DNA from: Burkholderiales bacterium
GTDB lineage: Bacteria > Pseudomonadota > Gammaproteobacteria > Burkholderiales > Burkholderiaceae_C
Length of the DNA: 64,000 nt
NCBI GenBank assembly: GCA_025358485.1
Contig: JANYJJ010000137.1
Span: 18,065-82,064, forward strand
Reading direction: 5' to 3'
Positions 34,365 to 52,613 of the stretch are shown here, piece by piece. A model generated the notes under the pieces. It ran no database searches. It had not been told where the DNA came from and worked only from the letters and a program-made list of their open reading frames with translations. Numbering within the stretch: position 1 is the first letter of the stretch; each line of letters starts with the position of its first letter. The position numbers and the translations under genes are program-made.

Positions 34365-34808
34365 TCAGTAGGTTTTGTAGGAAAGAAATTTCCCTGACAT
34401 CACGATGCTGACACGGTCACCGGCGGCATTGGGCTCGCGCTGCAAGTCCATTTTGAAGTCGATGGCAGACATGATGCCGTCGCCGAATTCTTCGTGAATC
34501 AGCTCCTTGAAGGTCGTGCCGTAAATGCTGACCAGCTCGTAAAAACGGTAGATCAGTGGGTCGGTGGGCACGCTGGTGGGCAGGCTGCCTTTGTAGGGCA
34601 CGACTTGCAGCCATTTCTGCTCTTCGGTGGTCAGCCCGAATATTTCGCCGACCGTCATGGCTTGTTGCGCAGTCAGCGTCATTTGGCCCAGGCAAGCTGC
34701 CGTGACCCACTCCTTGCTCTGCCCAACGGCCTTGGCCACATCGGCCCATTTCAGGCCTTTGCTGACTTTGGCAGTGATGATTTTTTCAGTGACGTCCAAG
34801 CGACTCAT
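34365..34808 (-). CDS. cynS: cyanase (cyanate hydratase)
   Basis: 147 aa: MSRLDVTEKIITAKVSKGLKWADVA...YRFYELVSIYGTTFKELIHEEFGDGIMSAIDF. ATG at 34808 is preceded by AAGGAGAA. Confidence 0.95.
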   Translation of the reverse strand: MSRLDVTEKIITAKVSKGLKWADVAKAVGQSKEWVTAACLGQMTLTAQQAMTVGEIFGLTTEEQKWLQVVPYKGSLPTSVPTDPLIYRFYELVSIYGTTFKELIHEEFGDGIMSAIDFKMDLQREPNAAGDRVSIVMSGKFLSYKTY

Positions 34809-35725
34809 GCGGTTCTCCTTAGCGGTGTGACGGTGGTGGAAGAAAGTGGAACTGGGATCGACTCTGGCTCGGGCTCCACCACCCCGGGGCTGACCTCCAG
34901 CGGCTGCGCTGGTGCGCGCCCGTGCGACAGATCTTTGCTGCGTGACACCAGGAAGTCGACCAAGTGGTTGCGGATGCGGTAGTACTGCGGATCGTGGTGC
35001 AGCGTGGCGCGTTGTCGGCCTTTGTCGGGGTCGCGTGTCATCGTGTTCTTGACGACCTCGGCCACACGGGCTTGGGGTCCGTTGCTCATCAACAAAATGC
35101 GGTCGGCCAATAAGATGGCTTCGTCCACATCGTGCGTGATCATGAAAACCGTTTGGTGCGTCTGGGCGCAAATGCGCAGCAATTCGTCTTGAATGCTGCC
35201 GCGCGTCAATGCGTCCAGCGCGCCAAAGGGCTCGTCCAACAGCAGCATGCGCGGCTGAATGGCAAACGCCCGGGCAATGCCCACGCGCTGTTTCATTCCC
35301 CCAGAAAGCGCACTCGGCTTTTTGTCGATGGCACCGGTCAGGCCCACCAGCTCAACGTACTTCTGCACGTGCAGGTCGAGCTCCGCTCGGCCCCAGTTTG
35401 GCCACTTGCTGCGCACAGCAAACGCGATGTTATTGCGCACGCTCAACCAAGGCATCAGCGCATGGCCTTGGAAAACCACGCCGCGGTCCAGGCTGGGCCC
35501 AGCCACTTCACGGCCGTCCATGAAAACATGCCCCGTGCTGGCCGATTCCAATCCAGCCAGAACGTTCAAGATCGTGGTCTTGCCGCAGCCGCTGTGACCG
35601 ATGATGCAGACGAATTCGCCCTGCGCAATGTTGAAATTGACGCTGTCGAAAACGCTCTCAGCGGAGCCTGCATAGGTTTTGCCGAGGCCCTCGACCTTGA
35701 GAAACTCAATGGGTTCAGTCGGCAT
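34805..35725 (-). CDS. cynD: nitrate/cyanate/sulfonate-type ABC transporter ATP-binding protein
   Basis: Walker A GHSGCGKTT, signature LSGGMKQRVGIARA, Walker B LLLDEPFGALD. Overlaps cynS by 4 nt. Symbol given by context only. Confidence 0.85.
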   Translation of the reverse strand: MPTEPIEFLKVEGLGKTYAGSAESVFDSVNFNIAQGEFVCIIGHSGCGKTTILNVLAGLESASTGHVFMDGREVAGPSLDRGVVFQGHALMPWLSVRNNIAFAVRSKWPNWGRAELDLHVQKYVELVGLTGAIDKKPSALSGGMKQRVGIARAFAIQPRMLLLDEPFGALDALTRGSIQDELLRICAQTHQTVFMITHDVDEAILLADRILLMSNGPQARVAEVVKNTMTRDPDKGRQRATLHHDPQYYRIRNHLVDFLVSRSKDLSHGRAPAQPLEVSPGVVEPEPESIPVPLSSTTVTPLRRTA

Positions 35726-36611
35726 AGGTCACGGCTTTCTGCAAACGAGCAAATACCAAGTCCAGCAGCATGCCGACCACGCCGATCACCAGCACCGCGA
35801 AGATCACGTTGGGCAAACTCAAGTTGTTCCACTCGTTCCAAACAAAGTAGCCGATGCCGGTGCCGCCCACCAGCATTTCTGCGGCGACGATCACCAGCCA
35901 AGCAATGCCCATGCTGATGCGCATGCCGGTCAAGATGGTGGGCGCAGCGGCGGGCAAGATCACCTCAAAGGCTTTGCGAAATGGGCTTACCTCCAGCGTG
36001 CGCGCGACGTTGAGCCACTCCTTGCGCACACTGGCCACGCCGAAGGCGGTGTTGATCAGCATGGGCCACACGCTACAGACGAAGATCACGAAGATGCCGC
36101 TGATGGCGCTGTCTTTGATGGTGTACAGCGCCAGTGGCATCCAGGCCAGCGGCGAAATGGGCTTGAGCACCTGGATGAAAGGGTCGAGCGCGCGGTAAAT
36201 CAGCCGGTTCATGCCGATCACAAAGCCGAGCGGGATGGCGACGGCGGCGGCCAAAAAATAGCCCAAACCAACGCGGCCCAAGGAGTACATCAGCTGCAGG
36301 CCCAAACCCTTGTCGTTGGGGCCGTTGTCGTAGAAAGGGCTCGACAAATTGCGCACCACAGCCGCGCCCATTTGGCTCAAAGTGGGGAAGCCGCTTTTGC
36401 CGCCGGTGCCTGTCGCGGCGTTGGCCGACAAGCTGGCCGGGTCTTTGCCCATCAGCTTGGCGTACTCGATTTGCTCGGCTGTCAGCGCCGTGGCGGGCAC
36501 TGACACCGCTGCGGGACGCAGCGTGGCAAGGTGCCAAATCAGCAAGATCAAACCCAAGATCAGCAGCGACAGCATCGATGCCTTCAAAGTTTCGGCGCGG
36601 TCTGGCTTCAT
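35715..36611 (-). CDS. cynB: ABC transporter permease (NrtB/CynB-type)
   Basis: Six-TM BPD_transp_1-type product with an EAA-like loop (ASVRKEWLNVARTLEVSPFRKAFEVILPAAAP). Confidence 0.85.
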   Translation of the reverse strand: MKPDRAETLKASMLSLLILGLILLIWHLATLRPAAVSVPATALTAEQIEYAKLMGKDPASLSANAATGTGGKSGFPTLSQMGAAVVRNLSSPFYDNGPNDKGLGLQLMYSLGRVGLGYFLAAAVAIPLGFVIGMNRLIYRALDPFIQVLKPISPLAWMPLALYTIKDSAISGIFVIFVCSVWPMLINTAFGVASVRKEWLNVARTLEVSPFRKAFEVILPAAAPTILTGMRISMGIAWLVIVAAEMLVGGTGIGYFVWNEWNNLSLPNVIFAVLVIGVVGMLLDLVFARLQKAVTYAD

Positions 36612-38014
36612 GCTTTGGAAATCGCAAAGCTCTTCAGGTATTCGTCGGCCTTGGCCGCATCAAATTCCTTGCCCATGATCTTGAATTTTTTGTAGGCCCC
36701 GTCGGGCACCGACTGGCCCAGCTCTTTCATGTACTTCTTCGCGTCGGTGATCAGGAAAACTTTCTCTGCCACTTGCTTGTAGTTGACTTCACCCTTCAGG
36801 TACCCCCAGCGCTTCATCTGCGTCATCATCCAAACCGCCATGCTTTGCCAAGGCACAGGGTCGAAGTCGGCACGTTCGGGCACCACGCGCACATTGCCCA
36901 GGCCGTCGGCGAACTTGCCGGTCAGCACCTGCGTCAGCACGGCCTCGGGTTGATTGAGGTACTGCGCCGGACTGATGACTTTGGCGATCAGCTCGCGGTT
37001 CTCAGGCTTGCGCGCCATAGCGGCGGCGGTGAGCACACTGCGGTAAAGCGCGGCAAAGGTGTTGGGGTTCTGCTGAATGAAGGCTTCGGGCACACCGAAG
37101 GCACAGCACGGGTGACCGTCCCAAATTTCGCGACTCAGGATGTGGATGAAGCCCGCTTCTTCAAACACGGCACGCTGGTTGAAGGGGTCGGGGCCGAGGA
37201 AGCCGTCAATGTTGCCGGCTCGCAAATTGGCCACCATTTCGGCCGGTGGTGTGACGCGCAATTGCACGTCGGTGTCGGGGTTCAGCCCCGCTTCGGCCAA
37301 GTAGTAGCGCAACAGAAAGTTGTGGATGCTGTAGTCGAACGGAATGGCGAACTTGAAGCCTTTCCAATTCTTCGGCTCACGGTTGCCCTTGTGTTTGTTG
37401 GCCAGCACGATGGCTTGGCCGTTGATGTTTTGGATGGTCGCCACATTCATGGCTTGCGCCGCGCTGCCCAGACCCAGACTGATGGCCAACGGCATGGGGC
37501 TCAAGAAATGCGTGGCGTCGTACTCCTTGTTCATGATCTTGTCGCGAATCAATGCCCAGCCCGCTGTTTTCATGAGCTGCACGCTCAGGCCTTGCTCGCG
37601 ATAAAAGCCCAGTGGGTCGGCCATGATCAGCGGACTGGCGCAGGTGATGGGGATGAAGCCGATCTTCAGGTCTTTCTTTTCCAGCGGTTTTTTGGTTTCG
37701 GCCATGGCCTGCAGGCTGGCCAAGGTGCCCAAAGGCAAGACGCTGCCAATGGCCGCCATCGCGCTGCCACGGCCCAGCGCCTTCATAAAGGCGCGCCGAA
37801 CGGGCTCACGCGGAAACAAGGCCTTTACCAAACTGGCTTCCATGAACTGACGCCCCAGCTCGTCAGGGGCCACCTGCGCATGGGTTTGGGGCGCGTGGTC
37901 AGCTCCACAGGCGCAGCGCAGCATCAAAGGCCGGTTTGCGTCGTAAGGGTCGTAAGCCTCGCAACCGTTGAGGGCGCTCTCCAATGGGGCGAGATGGAAA
38001 TTCGGGTGGGTCAC
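36608..38014 (-). CDS. cynA: NrtA/CynA-type ABC substrate-binding protein with Tat-like signal
   Basis: RRAFMKALGRGSAMAAIGSVLPLGTLASLQAMA twin-arginine signal after an unusual ~60-aa Cys/His-containing N-region. The start (GTG 38014) is uncertain. Confidence 0.8.
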   Translation of the reverse strand: MTHPNFHLAPLESALNGCEAYDPYDANRPLMLRCACGADHAPQTHAQVAPDELGRQFMEASLVKALFPREPVRRAFMKALGRGSAMAAIGSVLPLGTLASLQAMAETKKPLEKKDLKIGFIPITCASPLIMADPLGFYREQGLSVQLMKTAGWALIRDKIMNKEYDATHFLSPMPLAISLGLGSAAQAMNVATIQNINGQAIVLANKHKGNREPKNWKGFKFAIPFDYSIHNFLLRYYLAEAGLNPDTDVQLRVTPPAEMVANLRAGNIDGFLGPDPFNQRAVFEEAGFIHILSREIWDGHPCCAFGVPEAFIQQNPNTFAALYRSVLTAAAMARKPENRELIAKVISPAQYLNQPEAVLTQVLTGKFADGLGNVRVVPERADFDPVPWQSMAVWMMTQMKRWGYLKGEVNYKQVAEKVFLITDAKKYMKELGQSVPDGAYKKFKIMGKEFDAAKADEYLKSFAISKA

Positions 38015-38126
38015 GGTTTTCTCCAGCGATAGTGGGTTGACTTAAGCAGGAAACGTGCGCAACCTAGGCGCGCGCCAGAAACTGCCTTCTTCACAGCGTG
38101 GCTGGCTTCTTGCAACGGGTCCCGCC

Positions 38127-39773
38127 ATGCTTGAGCGCACTCACCCCGAACCACCCAGCGACGCGACAGATTGGCGTGCGCAAGAACTGCTGTTGCTGAG
38201 CCAAGTGATGCGAGGCGTTGGCCAGAGCTTGGCTCCAGCCGTCGTGCTGCGCGAAATGCTGCACCTGATGAGCGAATTGCTGGGTCTGAATCGCGGGCGC
38301 ATCGTGCTGGCCGACGAAGGCTACCGAACCCCCGCTCCCAGCGCGATCCAACACGCCTATGGACTGACCCAAGACGAGGTGGCCAAAGGCCGCTATGGCC
38401 CCGGCGAAGGGGTGACGGGCCGTGTTTTGGGCACCGGACAGCCGGCCATCGTGCAAGACGTTGACGCCGAACCGGCCTTCCTGTTCCGAGCCGTACCGCG
38501 CAGCCGGCTGCCGCCGCAAACCGTGGCTTTTATTGCGCTGCCGATTGAAGTGGAGCGCCGCACCATCGGGGTGCTGGCCTGTCACCGCATCCGCAGCCGC
38601 CACCGGCAGTTGGGCGATGACGTGGCCATTTTGCGCATATTGGCCACGCTCGCCGGGCAAATGCTTCAGTTGCAGCGTCTGGTGGCGGCAACAACGCGGG
38701 AGCTGCGTGCACGCAACGACCAGCTGACCGTGGCCCTGCAGAGCGCCGCTGCGCGCTATGGCATTGTCGGAACGGCAGCACCGCTGCTGCGCGCCATCAG
38801 CGAGCTCGAACGTGTGGCCAGTGCCACCGCGAGCGTGTTGCTGCTGGGCGAGTCGGGCACAGGCAAAGAGCTGTTTGCGCGCGCGCTGCACCTGTCCAGC
38901 CCGCGCCGTGATCAGCCCTTTATCAAGGTCAACTGCGCGGCGATTCCAGAAGCCCTGTTCGAGAGCGAACTGTTTGGCCACGAGCGTGGGGCGTTCACCG
39001 GTGCCCACGGAGAACGCGCAGGCTGGTTCGAATTGGCGAATCAAGGCACTATTTTTCTCGATGAGATAGGCGAGCTGCCGCTCCAACTGCAAACCAAACT
39101 GCTGCGCACCTTGCAGGAGGGCACCATCCTGCGGCTGGGCGGCAAACGTGAAAAAAAAATCGACGTGCGCTTGGTGGCTGCAACGCACCGCAACCTGGAA
39201 GAAGAAGCTTTGCGCGGGCACTTTAGGCGCGACTTGTTTTATCGCTTGTATGTGATCCCGATTCGCTTGCCGAGCCTGCGTGAACGACCCGACGACATCC
39301 CGCTGTTGAGCCAGCATTTCTTGAGTCGCGCCAACCAGGCCCACAACCGCAACGTCAACCTGACGCCTGGCGCGCTGGCGCGGCTGGCGCGCCATGACTG
39401 GCCGGGCAACATCCGCGAGCTGGACAATTTGATCGAACGCATGGTGCTGTTGGCTGAAACGTCGCTGCTCGATGAAACGGCGGTGCAGCGGCTTTTGCAA
39501 GACGGGCCGCCTTCAGCGTCGCAGACCGTTGCAACCTCAGTGCCTGTCGCGGCGACGGCGCTGGGCGGCCGACAGCGCATTGGGGCGCAAGACGGGCTGC
39601 GTGACCGGGCGCATGAAGACGTTCGTGATTATTGGCGCGCCGATTCGCACAGCCCGCAGATGCTGAACGAAGCCTTGGCTTTGGCCGGTGGCAACCAGAC
39701 ACGCGCTGCGCATGCGCTGGGTTTGACCGTCAGGCAGCTGGGCTATCGCTTGAAAAAACTGTCAACGTCGTAG
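38127..39773 (+). CDS. sigma-54-dependent enhancer-binding transcriptional regulator (GAF - AAA+ - Fis HTH)
   Basis: GAF-like N-terminal domain, Walker [15 protein letters not shown] signature ([13 protein letters not shown]), C-terminal HTH ([22 protein letters not shown]). Resembles CynF of the Pseudomonas cynFABDS cluster (from memory). Confidence 0.9.
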
Positions 39774-39810: not shown

Positions 39811-39843
39811 CGACAAAGGCCGACAAATTGTCGCCAAATTGTC
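39811..39843. promoter_or_regulatory. candidate upstream activator sites
   Basis: CGACAAAggcCGACAAATTGTCgcCAAATTGTC. Contains palindrome CGACAAATTGTCG and two CAAATTGTC copies 11 nt apart, 125-155 nt upstream of the -24 element. Confidence 0.4.
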
Positions 39844-39966: not shown

Positions 39967-39981
39967 TGGCACAGCCCTTGC
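39967..39981 (+). promoter_or_regulatory. sigma-54 (-24/-12) promoter
   Basis: TGGCACAGCCCTTGC is an exact match to TGGCAC-N5-TTGC. It lies 46 nt upstream of the rhodanese ATG, which has a GGAGA RBS. Confidence 0.75.
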
Positions 39982-40026: not shown

Positions 40027-40914
40027 ATGAACAGCTCACCCGTCCTCATCTCCCCGACCGAACTGCAAGCGCTGATGAGCGCCATGCCGACCGTGGTCAT
40101 CGACACCCGCGACGCTGACGCCTACGCGGCAGGGCACATCCCTGGCGCCATCAACATGCGCGAAATCTTCACCTATCTCGCGACGTCCACGGCAGAGGGC
40201 TTGCAAGCACTGAAGGCGACTTTCGCGGCAGCCTTTGGCGCTGCGGGCTTGTCCGGCGCTGAGACTGCCATTTTTTATGAAGACGCGTTGAACAGTGGCT
40301 ACGGGCAAAGCTGCCGTGGCTATTACCTGCTGACCTGGTTGGGCTACCCCAAGGTGAAAGTGGTCAACGGCGGGTTCTCTGCCTGGACGGCCTGCGCACT
40401 GCCGGTGTCTGTTGCGCCAGCCACGCCGCAGCCTGCCGTCTTTCCGTCGTTGGCCACCACCGACGTGATGCTCACCAAGGAGCAGGTGCAAGCCGCATTG
40501 GGAACCGACGTCGTGCTTTTGGATGTGCGTGACATCGACGAGTGGACGGGCGAGAGCAGCTCGCCTTACGGCAAGGACTTCGCGCCGCGCAAAGGCCGTT
40601 TGCCAGGTGCGAAGTGGATCGAGTGGTACCGCTTCATGAAGCCCAGTGCGCAAGGCCCGCAAATCAAATCGGCGCTGGAGGTTCAAGCCGAATGCGCCAC
40701 CGCGGGCATTGCCACCGACGACACGATCTACCTGTACTGCTTCAAAGGTGCCCGTGCTTCGAACACGTTTTTGGCTTTGAAGCAGGCCGGTTTCAGCGAC
40801 GTGCGCATGTACTTTGGTTCATGGAACGAATGGTCGCGAGATGACGCTTTGCCCATCGAGACGGCACCCCCGGTGATGGCCAGCAAGCCCGCACCACTGG
40901 CCATGGCTGCTTGA
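40027..40914 (+). CDS. tandem-rhodanese sulfurtransferase
   Basis: Two rhodanese domains. Active-site loop CFKGARAS in the second. GHIPGAINM in the first. Confidence 0.85.
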   Translation: MNSSPVLISPTELQALMSAMPTVVIDTRDADAYAAGHIPGAINMREIFTYLATSTAEGLQALKATFAAAFGAAGLSGAETAIFYEDALNSGYGQSCRGYYLLTWLGYPKVKVVNGGFSAWTACALPVSVAPATPQPAVFPSLATTDVMLTKEQVQAALGTDVVLLDVRDIDEWTGESSSPYGKDFAPRKGRLPGAKWIEWYRFMKPSAQGPQIKSALEVQAECATAGIATDDTIYLYCFKGARASNTFLALKQAGFSDVRMYFGSWNEWSRDDALPIETAPPVMASKPAPLAMAA

Positions 40915-40928
40915 GGTCAGGACGCGCC

Positions 40929-41459
40929 ATGACCACCGTCACTGCCTACCTCAAGCCCATTGACCGCGACGGCCTGCTTAAATTCGCCGCCGCCGGCCAA
41001 GCCGATCCGTCACGCCGCGGCACCAACAAAGTCCGCACCGTGATGGAAGGAAAGTACCGCTCGTTGAGCCACGTGGGCGACCACGCGCCGGTCGTGGTGG
41101 ACGAACCCTTGCACTTGTTCGGCGACAACACCGCGCCCGCGCCCGGCGAAATCGTGTTGTCGGCGCTGGGCGGTTGCCTGGCCGTGGGCATCACTGCGGT
41201 GGCCACCTGGAAGCAGGTCAAGCTGAGCCGGCTGGAATTGTTTTTGGAAGGTGACATCGGCAACCCGGCGGCGTGGGGGGCTGGCGGGGCCGAGCTGCCG
41301 CCGCCGCTGATGGGCTTCCAAGCCATCCGCGTGAAAGTCAACCTCGAAGGCGCGGCCACGCGCGCGCAGCTGGACGAAATCGTGCAGCACGCCAATCAAT
41401 ATTCGCCGGTGGCCAACAGCATGCGCAACCCGATTGCTTTCAGCATTGCGCTGGACTGA
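40929..41459 (+). CDS. OsmC-family protein
   Basis: GDNTAPAPGEIVLSALGGCLAVG ... NQYSPVANS. OsmC fold, with the second conserved Cys replaced by Ser. Confidence 0.8.
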   Translation: MTTVTAYLKPIDRDGLLKFAAAGQADPSRRGTNKVRTVMEGKYRSLSHVGDHAPVVVDEPLHLFGDNTAPAPGEIVLSALGGCLAVGITAVATWKQVKLSRLELFLEGDIGNPAAWGAGGAELPPPLMGFQAIRVKVNLEGAATRAQLDEIVQHANQYSPVANSMRNPIAFSIALD

Positions 41460-41484
41460 ACTTCCATTTTTGAAGCAACACGCC

Positions 41485-42633
41485 ATGGACATGACCGACT
41501 TGCAAACAGCGCCACACCCTGCCTGCGGTGCCGAGGCCAAAATGCTCAGTGCTGTGTGCGACATCGCCAACGGCGCATTGCGCGAGGCCGCCGAGGCAAC
41601 AGACCGCGGCATCTACCCGTGCGACCTGCTGCAACAACTGGGCACTGCCGGTGCCTTCTCGGCCCACCTCGGGCCGGGTGCCGAAGCAGGCGACTATGCC
41701 AGCGCGATCCATGCGATGGCAGCGGTATCGCGTGTTTGCGGTGCCAGCGGCTTCATGGTGTGGTGCCAGCAAGTTTGTGGTTTGTATCTGCAGCAGTCAG
41801 GCAACCCTGCACTCACCGGGCAGGTCTTGGCCGCTCATGCCAGCGGTGAGCGTTTGGGCGGCACGGGCATGAGCAACCCGATGAAGACCTATGCCGGGAT
41901 CGAAACCATGTTGCTGCGCGCCACGCCGGTTCAAGGCGGGTACTTGGTGAACGGTACGCTGCCATGGGTCAGCCACATTGGGTCGAATCACTATGCAGGG
42001 GTGCTGGCTGCGGTGGATGAACCGCCGGGCGAGTCGACTCGCGAAATCATGTTTTTGCTGCGCTGTGACGCGCCGGGCGTGGCACTGCGCCCCTGCCCAT
42101 CGTTCTCTGCGATGGAGGGCACCAACACCTGGGCCATACGCTGCACGGACGTTTTCATCGGCAGCGAAGTGCTCATGGCGGATCCGGCGCGGCCCTTCAT
42201 TGGCCGCATCCGAGGTGCCTTTGTGCTGCTGCAAACCGGCTTCGGCCTGGGCGTGGCCCAAGGTGCCATCGACTCCATGTGGCAGGTCGAGCCGCAACTG
42301 GGCCATGTGAACCGCTATCTCGAAGATCGGCCTGACGATCTGCAAGCGGAGTTGGACGCGTTGACCGCGCGAATCGATGGCTTGGCCGCAGACCCTTTCA
42401 ATGCCGCGCGCGATCACCTCATCGATGTGTTGGACGCACGTGCGCACGCCAGTGAACTGGCTTTGCGGGCCGCCCAAAGCGCCTTGTTGCATGCGGGGGC
42501 TCGTGGCTATTTGATTTCCAGCGAAGTGCAACGCCGCGTTCGCGAATCGCATTTCGTGGCCATCGTCACGCCCGCAGTCAAGCACCTGCGCAAGGAGATC
42601 GCCCGGCTCTCAACGGCGGAGATGCCGTCTTGA
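41485..42633 (+). CDS. acyl-CoA dehydrogenase-fold flavoprotein
   Basis: ~380 aa with ACAD N/M/C architecture ([23 protein letters not shown]). C-terminal region reads VAIVTPAV where MCAD-type enzymes have IYEGT. Confidence 0.8.
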
Positions 42634-44108
42634 GTGCAGGCCAAGCGGCGCTGGCGGTGCTTCTGCCTTGGCAGCAATTCATTTGCCATGTTTGCGGTCT
42701 GATCTACGACGAAGCCAAAGGCGACCCTGACGGCGGCCTGCCACCGGGCACGCGCTTTGCGGACATCCCCGACGACTGGGCCTGCCCGATTTGCGGCGTC
42801 AGCAAGGCCGACTTCGTGCCCTTCACGCCGCCGCCACCTCGCGACGCCAACAGCGCAAGACACGCACCGAAGCACGTCACGCGGCGCGGCGCGCGGGGCT
42901 CATCAGACAGCGGCGTGCTCATCGTCGGCGCGGGACGTGCGGGCTGGCAAGTGGCACAGGCACTGCGCGAGCGCGATGCCACGCTGGCCATCACCTTGGT
43001 CAGCGCCTGCAACGGCGACGTCTACGACAAGCCGCAACTCAGCGTGGCCGTGGCGCGCGGCATTGCCCTGCACAGCTTGGTTCGTGAGAGCGCGGCCGAT
43101 GCAGCGGAGCGCTTGAACTTGCGAATGCTGACGTCCACCGTTGCGCTTCACATCGACACGCGCACGCAGGCGCTGCGAACCGGCCGTGGTCCGCTGAGAT
43201 GGGGTCATTTGGTGCTGGCCCAGGGTGCCGAACCAGCGCTGCCAGCCGCGCTGCCGGCCGCGTTGGTATGGCGTATCAACGACCTGGCCAATTACCGAGC
43301 GCTGCGCGCCGCACTTCTCGGTAGGCCCCAGCGCATCGTGTTGGTAGGCGCTGGATTGGTGGGTTGCGAACTGGCCAACGACCTGGCGTTGGCTGGGCAC
43401 CGCGTTACCTTGCTGGACGTGCAATCAAACCCGTTGTCGGCGCACCTGCCAACAGAGGCAAGCCAGCGTCTGCTGAAGGCTTGGTCTGATTTGCCCATCC
43501 AATTTGTGGGAGGCATGCGCGTCAGCGGTGTGGAACGTCGGGCCGACGGTGGCCTGCGAGTTCACAGTCAGAACGCTGGACATTTCGATGCCGATCAGGT
43601 CATTGCCGCCACAGGCTTGCGAACCGCCGATCGCCTTGCGCGCAGTGCGGGTCTGGCCTTCGACGCTGTCGCGGGCGGCATTCAAGTGCGTGCTGAAGAC
43701 GGCGCGACCAGCGTGGCGGGCATCTACGCGCTGGGCGACTGCGCAGTGATTGACGGCTGCGCAAGCCGCTACATCGAACCCATCGGTCGGCAGGCACAAG
43801 CCATCGCCGCGGCCATCACGGGCCAAAGCTTCGAAGTCGGCGATGTTGCGGCTTCGGTGCTGCGCGTGAAGACCAGCCAACTGCCCATCACGCTGACGCG
43901 CGTGGGCAACGACGCCGCGCCTGGTGTGGAATCCGGTGCGGCAACCGAAAATGCCCATTGGCACATCGACCGCAACGACGATGACGCGCTGCACATGCGC
44001 AAAGTCTCAGCCAGCGGTCGGCTGATCGCCACCTTGGTGTCTGGCCGATACCCGCAGCCGACGGCTGAAGTGCAAGCCACTGCCCGCATCGTCCAAGCCG
44101 TTTTTTAA
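42630..44108 (+). CDS. rubredoxin fused to FAD-dependent pyridine-nucleotide-disulfide (rubredoxin reductase-like) oxidoreductase
   Basis: N-terminus [12 protein letters not shown]...[13 protein letters not shown] (CxxC...CxxC rubredoxin), then [12 protein letters not shown] and [14 protein letters not shown] dinucleotide folds. TTG start overlaps the upstream stop. Confidence 0.85.
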
Positions 44109-44305
44109 GCTTGCCGCACAGGCTGCGCGCTGTGGGTGCGGATGTTGCGCATGTTGCGGTGGGCGCACTGCCTCAACGTGTGCGAATCAGCTATGCCCGC
44201 ACAGCAGTTTTGCATGCACTTCAACGCTCACCGGCACGCGCTGGCGTACTTCTCGTCTCATATCATCGCGCGGGCCTTGCTTCGGCTCAAACGCGCCAAC
44301 ACGCC

Positions 44306-45481
44306 ATGTCAGGTTTGAAAATTTCTCTGCTGTTCGCCGCCGCATGCACCTTGACGGCCTGCGCCGGTTCCAACCCACACTTTGATGCCAGCAAGCCGCA
44401 TCACCGCCCCACGGGTTTCGTCAACAACTACCTCGACAACAGCAAAATTGGCGAGGGCTTCGTGCGCTGGCAGTGGACGCGCTTCACCAGCACTTTGCCC
44501 ACCGACCGGCCCGAGCGCGTGCCTCGGCAAGCGGTGGACGTGGCCTATCTGCAAGCCAACCGCACCGACACCACGGCCACCTGGCTCGGGCACGCCACCA
44601 TGCTGTGGCAAATCGGCGGTAAAAACATTTTGGTCGACCCGATTTTTTCTGAGCGTGCCAGCCCCGTGAGCTTTGCGGGCCCGGCGCGTTTGACGCCTGT
44701 GGCGATGCGCTTGGATCAGCTTCCGCACATCGACGCGGTCGTGGTCAGCCACAACCACTACGACCACTTGGACCGGCCCACCGTGTTGGCCTTGCAGCAG
44801 CAAAAAGGCGGTGCGCCGCTGTTCATCGTGCCGCTGGGCATCAACGATTGGATGAAGCGTGAAGGCGTCACCACGGTGCAGGGTTTGGACTGGTGGCAGG
44901 CTCATCAATTGGGGGATGTGAAGGTGAGCTTGGTGCCCGCGCAGCATTGGTCGGCACGCGGTGTGGCCGACCGCCATGAGTCACTCTGGGGCGGTTTTGT
45001 GGTGCAGCACCAGGGCTACTCGATGTACTACAGCGGCGACACCGGTTACAGCCGCGACTTTGCCGACATCGCTGCGAAGTTTGGCAAGTTTGACTTTGCG
45101 CAGATCCCGGTGGGCTGCTACGAGCCGCGTTGGTTCATGGGCAACCAGCACGTGAACGAACCCGAGGCCATTCAAATTCACCGCGACGTGGGCAGCAAGT
45201 TGTCCGTGGGTGTGCACTGGGGCACCTTCCGTTTGTGCGACGACCCCATCGACCAAGTGCTGGATGAATTTCCGAAAGCTGCCAAGGCCGCGGGCTTGAA
45301 GGACGGTGAGTTTGTGTTGCCTGCGTTGGGGCAGACCTTTGTGTTGCAACGCGCGGTGCCGCCACGCTCTGTGCTTGAACTTTCTGTGCCGAAACGCGCA
45401 GGGGAAACTGACCCTCAAGCCACAGCTTCTGCCTTGCCCACTTCCTCGTCGTCTTCCTCACCCAAAAACCCGCCACTCTGA
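44306..45481 (+). CDS. MBL-fold metallo-hydrolase lipoprotein (NAPE-PLD-like)
   Basis: Lipobox LTACAG. VVSHNHYDHLD metallo-beta-lactamase motif. Confidence 0.8.
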   Translation: MSGLKISLLFAAACTLTACAGSNPHFDASKPHHRPTGFVNNYLDNSKIGEGFVRWQWTRFTSTLPTDRPERVPRQAVDVAYLQANRTDTTATWLGHATMLWQIGGKNILVDPIFSERASPVSFAGPARLTPVAMRLDQLPHIDAVVVSHNHYDHLDRPTVLALQQQKGGAPLFIVPLGINDWMKREGVTTVQGLDWWQAHQLGDVKVSLVPAQHWSARGVADRHESLWGGFVVQHQGYSMYYSGDTGYSRDFADIAAKFGKFDFAQIPVGCYEPRWFMGNQHVNEPEAIQIHRDVGSKLSVGVHWGTFRLCDDPIDQVLDEFPKAAKAAGLKDGEFVLPALGQTFVLQRAVPPRSVLELSVPKRAGETDPQATASALPTSSSSSSPKNPPL

Positions 45482-47524: not shown

Positions 47525-48235
47525 TTACCCCAAGTGCGCGTTGCGGCGGCGCACATACCAACCGAGTGAGCCCAGGCCTGCAATCATCAGGGCCCAGGAG
47601 CTGGGCTCGGGGACAGGTGAGAGGGTGACAAAGTTGTCGAGGCCGGTTTCTTCGCAGCAGCTGAAACCGTTGATTTCAGGCCCTTCAGACCAGGTGATGC
47701 GTGTCAAAGCCGAGTCGCTGATGACGCCGAAGAACAGTGGGTCTTGCTCGGTCGCATTCAGCGGCAGCACTGGGATGAGCGTGTAGGTGGTGTCGCCGTC
47801 TGCGAAGAAAAAGCTCAAGAAACCGGGGCCAGGCGTTGCCGGGTTGTAGGCCGCAATGTCAAAGCCAAAGGCCTTGGTGTTGCCGGCGAAGTTGATGTTG
47901 TAGACGGCCTCGGGTTGGTTGCGCGTGGTGGCGAAAGCCATTTTTCCGATGCCTGCGGAATTGAAAACCTCCAGCGAGCTGAGGTTGGTCGACACGGTCA
48001 CGCCGGGCAGTACGTTCACGCCCAGCAAGTTGGCACCGACGGCATAGCCTTCGAAATCTTGCGTGAGGGTGGGCGCGGCACCGATACCGGTTAAAAAATC
48101 GGCGCGTGTGCCGAACAGCGAGACGGTGGCGGCCTGGGCCGTACCCAAGGTGGCTGCGGCAGCCAAGGCAGCAACAGCGAAGTGTTTAGTGATGTTCATG
48201 GTGACCTCAATGAAAGTTGAAGTGGCCTGCCACAC
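47525..48235 (-). CDS. PEP-CTERM sorting-domain protein
   Basis: Signal peptide. C-terminus SPVPEPSSWALMIAGLGSLGWYVRRRN. Confidence 0.8.
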   Translation of the reverse strand: MWQATSTFIEVTMNITKHFAVAALAAAATLGTAQAATVSLFGTRADFLTGIGAAPTLTQDFEGYAVGANLLGVNVLPGVTVSTNLSSLEVFNSAGIGKMAFATTRNQPEAVYNINFAGNTKAFGFDIAAYNPATPGPGFLSFFFADGDTTYTLIPVLPLNATEQDPLFFGVISDSALTRITWSEGPEINGFSCCEETGLDNFVTLSPVPEPSSWALMIAGLGSLGWYVRRRNAHLG

Positions 48236-50616: not shown

Positions 50617-51378
50617 ATGCTTGAACTCGCCACCGTCACGCTCGCTTCCCTCTTCGCGGGCCTCATAGACGCCATTGTTGGCGGGGGCGGTTTGATCTTG
50701 GTGCCTGCGCTGTTCAGCGTGTTTCCCAACGCGCCACCGGCCACACTCTTTGGCACCAACAAAGGCGCAGCCGTCTGGGGCACGGCGTGGGCCACGGCGC
50801 AATACGCGCGGCGCGTGCAGTTGCAATGGAGCGCCTTGTTGCCCGCAGCCATCGCCGCGTTGGCGGGCAGCTTTGCCGGTGCGTGGACGGTCACCCTGGT
50901 CAACGCCAACGGCCTGCGCAAAGCCTTGCCCTTCATTTTGGCTGCGGTGTTGATCTACACACTGCTGCGCAAAGACATGGGCCGCACCCATGCGCCACGC
51001 CACAGCGGCAGCACGCAAGCTTGGGTCGCCAGCGCCATCGGCGTGGTGATTGGTTTTTACGACGGCTTTTTCGGCCCCGGCACCGGCAGCTTCTTCGTCA
51101 TTTTGTTTGTGCGCTTGCTCGGCTACGACTTCTTGAACGCCAGCGCCAGCGCCAAACTGCTCAACACCGCCACCAACATTTCAGCCCTGGCACTCTTCGC
51201 CTACAAGGGTCACGTGTGGTGGCACATTGCCGGCGTGATGGCCGTGGCCAACGTGGCCGGCAGCCTGCTGGGCACGCGCCTGGCCCTGAAACACGGCGCA
51301 GGCTTCGTGCGCTGGGTGTTCATTGCGGTGGTGAGCGCGCTGATTTTGAAGACGGGGTTTGATGCGTTTTTGAGGTGA
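50617..51378 (+). CDS. TauE/SafE (DUF81) sulfite-exporter-family membrane protein
   Basis: GLIDAIVGGGGLILVPAL and GFYDGFFGPGTGSFF repeats typical of TauE. Confidence 0.85.
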   Translation: MLELATVTLASLFAGLIDAIVGGGGLILVPALFSVFPNAPPATLFGTNKGAAVWGTAWATAQYARRVQLQWSALLPAAIAALAGSFAGAWTVTLVNANGLRKALPFILAAVLIYTLLRKDMGRTHAPRHSGSTQAWVASAIGVVIGFYDGFFGPGTGSFFVILFVRLLGYDFLNASASAKLLNTATNISALALFAYKGHVWWHIAGVMAVANVAGSLLGTRLALKHGAGFVRWVFIAVVSALILKTGFDAFLR

Positions 51379-51467
51379 GGTCAGTGACTCTGGAAATCTC
51401 AAACTCGTGTCCGATACAGGGGGCACGCACCGATGTTAAAAACAGTCTTCACCTTCAAGGCACAGCG

Positions 51468-52613
51468 ATGAAAAACACCTATTACGAGTTCTTTGCTGGT
51501 GGTGGCATGGCCCACGCCGGACTGGGTTCGGGTTGGGACTGTTTGTTGGCCAATGACATGTCTGAAAAGAAGGCCGAGGCCTACGCCGCCAACTGGGGCT
51601 CAGACTCACTTTGGGTCGGCGACATTTCGCTGATTCAGTCGAATCAACTTCAAGGCCACGCCGATCTGGCCTGGGCTTCGTTCCCTTGCCAAGACCTGTC
51701 CTTGGCGGGCAACGGCGCTGGCTTAGACGGCAAGCGCAGCGGCACTTTTTGGTCGTTTTTGAGCGTCATGGCCGACCTGAAAACTGAAGCCCGAAAACCA
51801 AAAATGATTGCCCTGGAAAACGTCTGCGGCGCAGTGACCAGTCGAGGTGGAAAAGACTTTGAGGCCATGCTTTTGGGGGTGTCTGAACTGGGCTACCGCG
51901 TGGGTGCGATGGTGATAGACGCGGTTCACTTCGTGCCTCAATCGCGTCCTCGACTTTTCATTGTGGCCATCAACGAATCGCTGGCGATTCCGTCCGGCTG
52001 CTCGGCCGATTCACCCAGCCCGGCTTGGCACCCAACGGCCATCATCAGGGCTTACAACCGCTTGCCTGCACACATGAAAAAGAGCTGGGTTTGGTGGAGC
52101 TCGCCGATGCCCACCGCACGCTTGAAAACGCTTGATGACATTGTTGAGACAGAACCGCAAGGTGTGGACTGGCACACGGACGCACAGACTCAAACCCTGC
52201 TTGAGATGATGGCCCCGCTGCATCGGCAAAAGGTGTTGCAGGCACAGGCCGCAGGACACTTGAAAGTCGGCGCGATTTACCGCCGCACACGCGAAGGCGC
52301 TCAGCGCGCTGAGGTTAGATTCGATGGGCTTTCTGGATGTCTGCGCACGCCCGCGGGAGGTTCGAGCCGACAGACCATTTTGGTGGTTGACGGCAGCCGC
52401 ATTCGGTCGCGCTTGTTGTCGCCGCGTGAAGCAGCCAGACTGATGGGGCTGGCTGACAGCTACGTGCTTCCGGCTCGCTACAACGACGCCTATCATCTCG
52501 CTGGCGACGGTGTGGTGGTGCCGGTGGTGTCGCACTTGGGGCGGCATATTTTTGACAAGGTTGCCGAGCAAAATCGCTGGTATCACGCCTCGACCATGGT
52601 CAAGGCGGCTTAA
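51468..52613 (+). CDS. DNA (cytosine-5)-methyltransferase
   Basis: Motif I FFAGGGM, IV FPCQDLS, VI ENV, VIII QSRPRLF, IX REAARLMG, X AGDGVVVPV. All are intact. Confidence 0.92.
   Translation: MKNTYYEFFAGGGMAHAGLGSGWDCLLANDMSEKKAEAYAANWGSDSLWVGDISLIQSNQLQGHADLAWASFPCQDLSLAGNGAGLDGKRSGTFWSFLSVMADLKTEARKPKMIALENVCGAVTSRGGKDFEAMLLGVSELGYRVGAMVIDAVHFVPQSRPRLFIVAINESLAIPSGCSADSPSPAWHPTAIIRAYNRLPAHMKKSWVWWSSPMPTARLKTLDDIVETEPQGVDWHTDAQTQTLLEMMAPLHRQKVLQAQAAGHLKVGAIYRRTREGAQRAEVRFDGLSGCLRTPAGGSSRQTILVVDGSRIRSRLLSPREAARLMGLADSYVLPARYNDAYHLAGDGVVVPVVSHLGRHIFDKVAEQNRWYHASTMVKAA

Follow-up and report, generated by a model that had tools for sequence, protein, structure and literature searches.

The four genes at 40027–44108 of a 64,000-nucleotide stretch of DNA from a Burkholderiales bacterium (GenBank assembly GCA_025358485.1, contig JANYJJ010000137.1, positions 18,065 to 82,064 of the forward strand; this whole stretch is called the window here) form an operon that represents, in this genome, an enzyme module that is widespread and so far uncharacterised and is composed of an OsmC-like protein, an acyl-CoA dehydrogenase (ACAD)-fold flavoprotein, and a dedicated rhodanese. 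The core of this module stands with genes for cyanase and anion uptake in well over a hundred bacterial loci, and it is highly probable that the module takes part in the cyanate-linked (pseudohalide) scavenging of nitrogen and sulfur. Judging from the neighbouring genes, the chances are slightly under even that this thiol- and flavin-based module turns imported thiocyanate into cyanate and usable sulfur. More tentatively still, the OsmC-like/ACAD-like/rhodanese triad may represent a third system for thiocyanate breakdown, which would operate in the cytoplasm by means of flavin and cysteine and would be tied to an importer.

The operon and its conserved core

The operon of the window consists of the genes for the rhodanese (40027–40914, +; two Pfam Rhodanese stretches, 115.5 bits), the OsmC-like protein with one Cys (40929–41459, +; Pfam OsmC, 71.9 bits), the ACAD-fold protein (41485–42633, +; Acyl-CoA_dh_N, PF02771, 31.6 bits), and a fused rubredoxin::NorW-like reductase (42630–44108, +; Rubredoxin at aa 17–62, 75.5 bits, and Pyr_redox_2 at aa 96–383, 137.5 bits). 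The tight packing of these four reading frames that was pointed out in a preliminary description of the sequence is borne out, with intergenic gaps of 14 nt and 25 nt and an overlap of 4 nt (TTGA) between the ACAD and reductase genes, and the Pfam domains agree with it. GGAG-type ribosome-binding sites precede the rhodanese and reductase genes; no sigma-70-like promoter was found inside the operon by a consensus scan, and terminator-like matches within it are no more frequent than in shuffled sequence. All four proteins score below the cut-off of every NCBIfam model. Next to the operon lie the components of a cynABDS cluster, namely cyanase, an NrtA-type ATP-binding cassette (ABC) transporter, and an adjoining gene for a sigma-54 activator. 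The transporter and cyanase genes occupy the opposite strand and encode a cynA-like solute-binding protein (SBP; 36608–38014, −; NMT1_2, 268 bits), a permease (35715–36611, −), which passes the NtrB model with 228.7 bits against a cut-off of 209, a cynD-like ABC ATPase (34805–35725, −), and the cyanase CynS (34365–34808, −; Cyanate_lyase and CYNS_N, 116 and 94 bits).

A scan of genomes, in which each species was represented by one genome, yielded 80 loci, nearly all of them from Burkholderiales/Betaproteobacteria (Rhizobacter, Rubrivivax, Polaromonas, Aquabacterium, and others), together with a few labelled generically as Pseudomonadota and one contig (L077) labelled Beijerinckiaceae. The closest relative, a Rhizobacter metagenome-assembled genome (MAG), shares 84–94% amino-acid identity with the window. 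In each of the 77 genome loci that could be assessed, the OsmC gene lies 5' of the ACAD gene, the rubredoxin::reductase gene lies 3' of it in all 70 assessable Burkholderiales loci, and the rhodanese gene is immediately upstream in about five-sixths of the genome loci, so that the co-occurrence of the four genes, which the preliminary description had left to be checked, is found in this order. The conserved arrangement in Burkholderiales is activator, promoter, rhodanese, OsmC, ACAD, and rubredoxin::reductase, with about 70 genomes keeping both the promoter and the gene order. In one close relative (L081:6983–8268), two additional genes, which encode a 273-aa protein of no family and a 4HBT-fold thioesterase, are inserted between the activator and rhodanese genes.

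Distant members with 30–45% identity retain the OsmC–ACAD pair beside an NrtA/SsuA-type ABC importer and usually cyanase. The order is cynS-ABC-OsmC-ACAD-rhodanese in L082 and ABC-OsmC-ACAD in L084, L091, and Methylocystis, where a TetR-family gene adjoins except in L091. In Breoghania (L086), a TetR gene is followed by ABC-OsmC-ACAD-rhodanese-ferredoxin-type reductase-cynS, and in L089 a GAF activator gene is followed by ACAD-rubredoxin-ABC-cynS-OsmC-CMD (AhpD-like)-rubredoxin reductase. Thiobacillus from a thiocyanate-bioreactor metagenome carries cynSDBA divergent from activator-OsmC-ACAD-DUF302-rubredoxin, and an Acidiferrobacter-like locus (L176) carries rhodanese-cynS-cynDBA divergent from activator-OsmC-ACAD. 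A marine Verrucomicrobiota locus (L094) reads ABC-OsmC-ACAD-OsmC-cynS, and Pseudosulfitobacter has ABC-OsmC-ACAD-sulfurtransferase-DsbA-like protein. On plasmids of Acetobacter ascendens and Burkholderia sp. PAMC 26561, OsmC-ACAD-rubredoxin::rubredoxin reductase-cynABD-cynS form one string; in the latter (L184), a gene of the metallo-β-lactamase (MBL) fold, shorter than and different from the one that follows the operon in the window, lies 3' of cynS. One distant member (P0132, L083) is solitary, with no partner genes around it.

A scan of metagenomes with a narrower alignment added 80 further loci, many of them of one soil type, the few relatives with a name being MAGs of Xanthobacteraceae. 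The arrangement that prevails in them is a TetR gene followed by OsmC-ACAD-rhodanese-cynA-cynB-cynD-cynS; the OsmC gene adjoins in 63 of 63 and the rhodanese gene in 56 of 59 assessable loci. Among the 22 metagenome loci with long flanks, NrtA-type ABC genes on the same strand were present in 20, cyanase in 16, TetR in 21, and a reductase, of the ferredoxin reductase (FdR) type, in 7. The core is thus an OsmC-like (sometimes AhpD-like) protein and the ACAD-like protein, usually accompanied by this rhodanese and an NrtA/SsuA-type importer and very often by cyanase, and it is spread over Beta-, Alpha-, and Gammaproteobacteria, Verrucomicrobiota, and one cyanobacterium. The earlier view of the four genes as a unit therefore needs to be divided: they are co-conserved in Burkholderiales, but elsewhere the reductase is mostly absent or a different one, and the rubredoxin::reductase is a lineage-specific accessory, present in Burkholderiales and a small number of further lineages. 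On the other hand, the tie to cyanase and thiocyanate, which had been a guess, gains much in strength, as OsmC-ACAD is found in one operon or locus with cyanase and NrtA-type ABC genes in distant lineages.

An ACAD-fold protein without a catalytic glutamate and its thiol partners

The AlphaFold2 (AF2) model of the ACAD-fold protein (pLDDT 84, pTM 0.86) and a Foldseek search with it show a three-domain ACAD fold. Butyryl- and isovaleryl-CoA dehydrogenases were matched with TM-scores of 0.76–0.79 at 16–21% identity, and the matches, with TM-scores of 0.7–0.79 overall, also include glutaryl-CoA dehydrogenase and 3-sulfinopropionyl-CoA desulfinase (0.76). In the HMMER alignment to 1ws9, T362 aligns with the catalytic Glu of the I-G/Y-E-G-T motif, which is the position of E376 in medium-chain acyl-CoA dehydrogenase, and by our reading of the alignment A245 occupies the alternative position used in isovaleryl-CoA dehydrogenase (IVD; E254). 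The consensus of 49 diverse family members at these two positions is FVAIVTP and IRPGF, which indicates that both known catalytic-Glu positions are replaced family-wide. With no Glu at either position, the function of a normal dehydrogenase is excluded for the ACAD-like protein. The preliminary description had read VAIVTPAV in place of the catalytic-Glu motif and had regarded a retained catalytic base as evidence against its view; the alignment upholds that reading, and neither known position holds such a base. The family signature consists of the motifs WCQ, G(L/M)SNPMK, LPWVSN, and FVAIVTP. The flavin-contact motifs are partly retained, in that LPWVSN and GARGY (GxxGY) are conserved and TEP..GSD is changed to SNPMK..GIE, and the protein presumably binds flavin.

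A search with a family profile ranked true short-chain ACADs at the top (2e-30), whereas Rv3094c, an ACAD-fold S-oxygenase, scored 9e-11, and no chain named DszC or SfnB was among the best 60 of 93 matches. Among the Pfam ACAD domains, PF02771 alone passes; PF08028 reaches 20.3 against a cut-off of 22.7, and neither PF02770 nor PF00441 was reported as a Pfam match in this protein. The SfnB model TIGR04022 gives 21.2 against a cut-off of 430.9. The placement of the protein in the DszC/SfnB monooxygenase branch, which the preliminary description had suggested, was consequently abandoned, and by sequence the family is a derived offshoot of true short-chain ACADs. It is small and distinct, with 136 clusters (50% identity, E ≤ 1e-30) among 1.84 billion representatives, and it is annotated merely as 'AidB-like' or 'acyl-CoA dehydrogenase family protein', with generic names in RefSeq. 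No fusion with OsmC or other partners was seen, the longer members having no additional Pfam domain. The best NCBIfam match within the ACAD fold is 3-sulfinopropionyl-CoA desulfinase (32 bits against a cut-off of 600).

An ordinary operon for a fatty-acyl or short-chain acyl-CoA dehydrogenase would account for the fold and for the nearest sequence relatives, the butyryl- and isovaleryl-CoA dehydrogenases. However, it would not account for the replaced catalytic-Glu positions or for the fact that the N-terminal Pfam domain is the only one to pass. Moreover, the conserved neighbours are genes for transport, thiol proteins, sulfurtransferase, and cyanase, and not for electron-transfer flavoprotein (ETF), CoA ligase or transferase, hydratase, or thiolase; ETF or CoA-activating genes were absent from the neighbours of about 20 loci, the census of the other 160 loci having included no such queries. 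We therefore regard an ordinary dehydrogenase operon as extremely unlikely.

The proteins encoded around the ACAD-like protein carry a sulfur signature: a highly conserved rhodanese, an OsmC-like protein with an invariant single Cys, and AhpD- or DsbA-like thiol proteins elsewhere. The OsmC-like protein has its single Cys in an LGGC motif, and the second Cys of OsmC/Ohr is replaced (SPVAN), which leaves the peroxidatic Cys only of the two found in OsmC/Ohr thiol peroxidases. The first Cys (LGxC) is invariant among the 17 partner sequences that were compared, and CP is swapped to SP in every one of them, whereas the canonical OsmC paralogue in L094 retains CPV. An AhpD-like (CMD) protein replaces OsmC in Moraxella and Neisseria, a Cys-rich DUF4242 protein stands in its place in Synechococcus, and thiol proteins like AhpD or DsbA replace or accompany it at other loci. 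The rhodanese has tandem domains with the active-site loop CFKGARA in the C-terminal one, and its best solved relative is RhdA of A. vinelandii (1e0c, 2.8e-29). In L082, where the rhodanese gene lies 3' of the ACAD gene, the rhodanese shares 61% identity and the same CFKGARA loop with that of the window, as compared with 42% for the ACAD-like protein; the rhodanese is the more conserved of the two. In the reductase, a rubredoxin (CxxC...CxxC) is fused N-terminally, and the NorW model gives 226 bits against a cut-off of 392. The OsmC-like protein and rhodanese of the window also show weak matches to '(seleno)protein' models of NCBIfam. In a Rubrivivax MAG (L056:10388–13667), the OsmC-ACAD-rubredoxin::reductase trio adjoins selD/senC, senB (selenosugar synthase, 451 bits), and senA (selenoneine synthase, 500 bits); tblastn placed senABC at this locus alone, and a link to selenium was set aside as coincidence.

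These thiol proteins could also be read as a thiol/peroxide or persulfide stress module that is co-regulated with cyanate assimilation and has no catalytic step in it, in which the ACAD-like protein and the OsmC/AhpD-like protein, reduced via rubredoxin and reductase, would clear a reactive oxidant, sulfur species, or carbamoylating agent that comes with the uptake of pseudohalides. Both OsmC and CMD/AhpD belong to peroxidase-type families, and they are interchangeable beside the ACAD gene; rubredoxin with a NorW-like reductase is a classic electron chain of detoxification, and the Neisseria genes were placed in a 'redox' class among those induced under the oxidative stress that cysteine depletion brings about. 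Every partner compared is, however, without the resolving Cys of OsmC/Ohr, and a pair tied to an importer and a specific rhodanese in one operon across phyla would be odd for a general stress function, which would also leave the cyanase linkage and the second transporter type described below unexplained. A stress module is therefore considered unlikely.

Importers, sulfur starvation, and the thiocyanate proposal

Two types of importer accompany the module. The SBP of the window has close relatives in NrtA and CmpA and in the solute-binding-like regulatory domains of NrtC and CmpC (1e-38 to 1e-47). SBPs of this CynA type carry a conserved Cys/His-rich N-terminal stretch, CEAYDPYDANRPLMLRCACGADH (aa 18–40; 37895–37963, −), which also occurs in distant soil loci (L112), and a Tat-like signal, RRAFMKALG, lies beyond it at aa 73–81 of the cynA-like protein. 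The second type, SBP2, shows 43–47% identity among distant loci and 27–29% to the first type, matches NrtA at 2e-12, and is weakly similar to SsuA/TauA/SaoX; its importer genes lie directly 5' of OsmC-ACAD in many lineages. Two loci, L099 and L104, have a divergent SBP2-type importer before the triad as well as a cynABD-type transporter, and L099 also has cyanase, while the contig of L104 ends after the permease. The coexistence of the two importer types at these loci suggests that the substrate of the triad is an imported solute other than cyanate, and it also argues against freely diffusing HCN as the substrate.

The latter point bears on the long-postulated 'cyanide monooxygenase plus cyanase' route, in which the rhodanese would trap cyanide as thiocyanate, or the flavoprotein would oxidise cyanide, and cyanate would pass to cyanase. 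Rhodanese is the classical enzyme of cyanide-to-thiocyanate conversion, cyanase lies within the same operons, and an NADH-driven reductase is available in this lineage. Nevertheless, HCN crosses membranes freely, so that an ABC importer, especially SBP2 beside cynABD, would have no explanation; the sulfur-starvation contexts do not fit, and many loci are without the reductase. Such a funnel for cyanide is accordingly judged improbable.

The sulfur-starvation contexts are found in Synechococcus and Neisseria. In Synechococcus elongatus PCC 7942, the plasmid pANL carries DUF4242, a divergent but motif-complete member of the ACAD family, and an ABC importer of the SBP2 type (L180:9388–13847), which gives 519 bits to SBP2 of L056. 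The set lies beside two cysK genes and gamma-glutamyltransferase, chromate-transporter, and catalase-like genes, in what we take to be the sulfur-regulated, CysR-dependent srp region. This strain is presumably a CysR-dependent user of thiocyanate as a sulfur source, and its pANL set offers a genetically tractable model for the family. In Neisseria gonorrhoeae (L178:8300–10368; the record, though listed in PLSDB as a 2.17-Mb 'plasmid', is chromosomal and almost unannotated), the order is dld, DUF2628, CMD, ACAD-like, and rubredoxin, and the ACAD-like protein has all family motifs. We assume that the matching N. meningitidis tags are NMB0997–0993. A 1984 study by Port et al. is said to have found that meningococci can use thiocyanate as a sulfur source. 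Upon cysteine depletion of N. meningitidis, NMB0994 (ACAD family; Q9JZL9) was induced 3.5-fold and NMB0995 (AhpD-like; Q9JZL8) 7.2-fold (PMC3553081 supplement). NMB0995, which is also annotated as 'MIP-related protein', is NafA, which was published as an anti-aggregation factor exposed at the surface and was given no biochemical function (PMC3128610). By gene order, size (19 kDa, 182 aa), and annotation, NafA is probably the AhpD-like gene product encoded before NMB0994 and rubredoxin and presumably corresponds to the gonococcal ORF; it has the CMD fold and not that of OsmC. A further paper states, in no more specific terms, that 'numerous sulfur sources' have been shown for meningococci (PMC2323225).

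Sulfur starvation and an SBP2 weakly like SsuA/TauA/SaoX would also be expected of Ssu/Sfn/Dsz-like scavenging of organosulfur, in which a sulfonate, sulfone, or thio-organic compound would be taken up by an SsuA-like importer and oxygenated by the ACAD-fold enzyme with electrons from the reductase, cyanase being no more than a frequent neighbour. ACAD-fold S-oxygenases exist, Rv3094c is among the fold matches, and the pANL sulfur region and the induction by cysteine depletion fit this explanation. It has against it that the sequence groups the family with true short-chain ACADs and not with the S-oxygenases (SfnB 21 against 431 bits, PF08028 below its cut-off), and it leaves unexplained the repeated linkage to cyanase and cynABD within one operon in at least five lineages. 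We thus hold organosulfur scavenging of this kind to be a rather poor prospect.

Thiocyanate is proposed as the substrate because the pair is coupled to sulfur-starvation genes in some lineages and to cyanase in many others, in every case with thiol proteins and in most with a sulfurtransferase and an importer of the anion type, and thiocyanate is one small solute that would yield both sulfur and cyanate. The presence of the module in Thiobacillus from a thiocyanate-bioreactor metagenome supports this assignment. In the proposed pathway, thiocyanate would be taken up by the NrtA/SsuA-type ABC importer. The S–C bond could then be broken by the ACAD-like flavoprotein together with the Cys of its OsmC-like partner, either by S-oxidation or by capture of the sulfur on the thiol. 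Following release of cyanate, cyanase would convert it to NH3 and CO2, and the sulfur may leave as sulfane sulfur on cysteine, to be passed to the rhodanese. In this lineage, the fused rubredoxin-reductase could link the flavin or the thiol to electrons of NAD(P)H, whether in or out, and expression may be turned on by the GAF-domain sigma-54 activator at CGACAAATTGTCG. As the underlying chemistry, S-oxygenation, an oxidative coupling of the thiol with thiocyanate followed by hydrolysis, or a redox-neutral cycle may be considered; the patchy presence of the reductase argues against a strictly NADH-dependent oxygenase everywhere. What the sequences show is the gene content, the promoter, its conservation and that of the genes, the coupling to cyanase and ABC genes, and the loss of the catalytic Glu of ACADs; from these we infer thiocyanate as the substrate, as well as the reaction, the way in which electrons flow, and what the activator responds to.

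Several observations weigh against thiocyanate. The assignment is drawn solely from the neighbours of the genes, and homology lends it no support, since the known thiocyanate enzymes, ScnABC and the copper-containing thiocyanate dehydrogenase (TcDH), are unrelated. Binders of nitrate and bicarbonate are the closest relatives of the SBP in the window, and most loci outside Burkholderiales are without the reductase (FdR type in 7 of 22), so that an NADH-dependent oxygenase mechanism could not be universal. The module is common in metagenomes of pristine soil, glacier streams, and the open ocean, where thiocyanate is scarce. In reactors such as those from which the Thiobacillus carriers come, Thiobacillus is considered to use thiocyanate hydrolase. 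The Neisseria and Moraxella versions are without cyanase, and that of Neisseria is also without an importer. Furthermore, NMB0994 and NMB0995 were classed as 'redox' by the authors of the expression study (PMC3553081), and their induction could reflect oxidative stress rather than a demand for sulfur.

Regulation, neighbouring genes, and relation to known systems

The sigma-54 promoter of the operon, TGGCACAGCCCTTGC (39967–39981, +), is an exact −24/−12 consensus that lies 46 nt 5' of the rhodanese ATG and is the only exact match to TGGCAC-N5-TTGC within the window. The −24/−12 element is kept in 62 of 70 related loci, and the first operon gene begins 36–89 nt downstream of it in nearly every case (270 nt in L069), a recurrence at the operon start that is far beyond chance. 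At 39821–39833, 146 bp upstream of the −24 box, CGACAAATTGTCG forms a perfect palindrome, the sole exact CGACA-N3-TGTCG of the window, and the same dyad recurs in many related loci in the interval from the activator gene to the operon (e.g., L004, L015, L018, L053, L064, L065, L074, and L076). It is probably the site to which the activator binds. The regulatory architecture of palindromic site, promoter, and four genes is conserved, and the window thus possesses a GG-N10-GC promoter, an upstream dyad, and an adjoining gene for an enhancer-binding protein. The sigma-54-driven operon of the preliminary description stands, at the level of sequence, on this unique and perfect promoter, its retention in relatives, and the co-conserved genes. 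In Polaromonas-type loci (L016, L018, L023–L051), an AT-rich dyad, GCTATTAAAT..ATAGC, sits about 90 nt upstream of the −24 box, between the palindromic site and the promoter; it is absent from the window and could be a site for integration host factor or for a second regulator.

The activator (38127–39773, +; Sigma54_activat 231.5, GAF 56.6, and HTH_8 37.4 bits) is encoded by a reading frame that is open from 38055 and has its likely start at ATG 38127. Its gene lies directly 5' of the operon in most related loci, even in those without cynABDS within 8 kb, and in the window the activator appears to serve the four-gene operon through its own palindromic site. Upstream of cynA, neither a canonical sigma-54 promoter nor CGACA-N3-TGTCG is present; there is only a conserved non-canonical element. 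This element, TGCGCAC-GTTTC-CTGCTT (38044–38062, −), lies 30 nt upstream of the GTG of cynA and resembles a −24/−12 element in which GG is missing in most relatives; its counterpart in Thiobacillus (L092) is TGGCAC-GCTTC-CTGA. The cynA upstream region also has a conserved GCAAGAAGCCxGCCA motif and, in several relatives, a TGTAGGGC..GCCCTACA dyad.

The activator scores below the NifA and NorR cut-offs (NorR, 342 against 476 bits). Its similarity to NorR, together with that of the rubredoxin-fused reductase to NorW (226 bits) and the position of one relative (L089) beside nap genes, would be in line with detoxification of NO or another nitrogen oxide, as carried out with NorVW. Both scores are, however, under their cut-offs (476 and 392), and on this ground the NorR/NorVW reading was rejected; in addition, the four operon proteins have no flavodiiron or NO-reductase domain, most relatives are under TetR-type repressors and without a reductase, and the rhodanese and cyanase would be given no role. 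Nitrogen-oxide detoxification is, in our estimate, highly unlikely. NorR-NorVW and AlkG/AlkT resemble the window in the NorR-like GAF/sigma-54 activator and in the use of rubredoxin as a carrier together with an NADH:rubredoxin reductase, but here the rubredoxin is fused N-terminally and neither a flavodiiron protein nor an AlkB hydroxylase is encoded in the operon.

An MBL-fold (Lactamase_B_2) reading frame at 44111–45481 (+), with a lipoprotein-like signal starting near 44306, about 200 nt 3' of the operon, was excluded as an operon member, as it is not conserved alongside the operon in relatives. Farther along, the flank of the window encodes a PEP-CTERM-anchored protein (47525–48235, −) and a C-5 cytosine DNA methylase (51375–52613, +), and the remainder that was sampled is housekeeping (putA, gdhA, purT, uvrA, and glutathione S-transferases).

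Among characterised systems, the cynFABDS cluster of Pseudomonas pseudoalcaligenes CECT5344 likewise combines a sigma-54-dependent regulator, an NrtA-type cynABD transporter, and cyanase for nitrogen scavenging, but in contrast to the window, rhodanese, OsmC, rubredoxin, and acyl-CoA are nowhere mentioned in its description (PMC6627978). Unlike in cynFABDS, the palindromic site and the canonical −24/−12 promoter of the window precede the four-gene operon and not cynA. The TcDH 'cyanate pathway' of Thioalkalivibrio and Thiohalobacter has the same proposed net reaction, from SCN− to OCN− and zero-valent or sulfane sulfur, followed by cyanase (PMC5328954, PMC5744179, PMC6504805). TcDH, however, is a copper enzyme in the periplasm of chemolithotrophs, where it passes electrons to respiration, and it is unrelated to the four operon proteins, whereas the module of the window would act in the cytoplasm, depend on flavin and thiol, and be associated with an importer. 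ScnABC, the enzyme of the carbonyl sulfide (COS) pathway, degrades thiocyanate for nitrogen, sulfur, or energy and is found in Thiobacillus of bioreactors of the same kind; it is a cobalt enzyme of the nitrile-hydratase family that gives COS and NH3, not cyanate. No domain of the nitrile-hydratase type or of the copper TcDH was found in the four operon proteins or their conserved neighbours, and any resemblance to these enzymes would be confined to the reaction.

The nearest enzymological analogue is 3-sulfinopropionyl-CoA desulfinase (AcdDPN7; 5af7/5ahs), which shares with the ACAD-like protein a fold derived from true ACADs, though at 32 against 600 bits the latter is far below membership of that family. 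The desulfinase has lost the catalytic Glu and cleaves a C–S bond. Unlike the desulfinase, which acts on a CoA thioester, the module comes with no CoA-activating gene. DszC, SfnB, and Rv3094c also have the ACAD fold without dehydrogenase chemistry, perform S-oxygenation with a separate NAD(P)H reductase, and belong to sulfur-scavenging operons with ABC importers; in contrast to the flavin reductase partner of DszC and SfnB, the reductase of the window is of the rubredoxin-reductase type and is absent from most loci outside Burkholderiales. The operon resembles nutrient-scavenging operons in which an NrtA/SsuA-type importer is paired with a flavoenzyme, here grafted onto cyanate assimilation. 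We found no paper that describes the OsmC-ACAD-rhodanese module, which, together with the NCBIfam scores, agrees with the statement of the preliminary description that the combination is not a described pathway.

Many heterotrophs, and besides them a cyanobacterium and meningococci, are reported to use thiocyanate as a nitrogen or sulfur source, and no gene has been assigned to this use. The two thiocyanate-degrading systems described so far, ScnABC hydrolase and copper TcDH, are mainly from sulfur-oxidising chemolithotrophs (PMC5328954; bioRxiv 10.1101/2024.12.18.629290). If the thiocyanate reaction proves true, the triad would be a categorically new enzyme system for it and would supply the gene basis for the 'cyanate pathway' of thiocyanate use in heterotrophs, testable in cultured, tractable organisms. 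Cultured carriers of the family include Pseudaquabacterium pictum W35, Azohydromonas sediminis SYSU G00088, Acetobacter ascendens SRCM101447, Burkholderia sp. PAMC 26561, Breoghania corrubedonensis, S. elongatus PCC 7942 (pANL genes RS13435–13455), and N. meningitidis. The pathway would then occur in soil, freshwater, marine, and host-associated bacteria (Neisseria and Moraxella) and in Synechococcus, it would feed the pools of cyanate and reduced sulfur in soils and waters from a source not recognised so far, and it would provide new markers and parts for the bioremediation of cyanide and thiocyanate. It would also give a biochemical context to NMB0993–0995 (NafA) of Neisseria, so far associated with a phenotype alone. 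Even with a different substrate, a family of ACAD-fold proteins that is devoid of the catalytic Glu and paired with a one-Cys thiol protein would constitute new enzymology.

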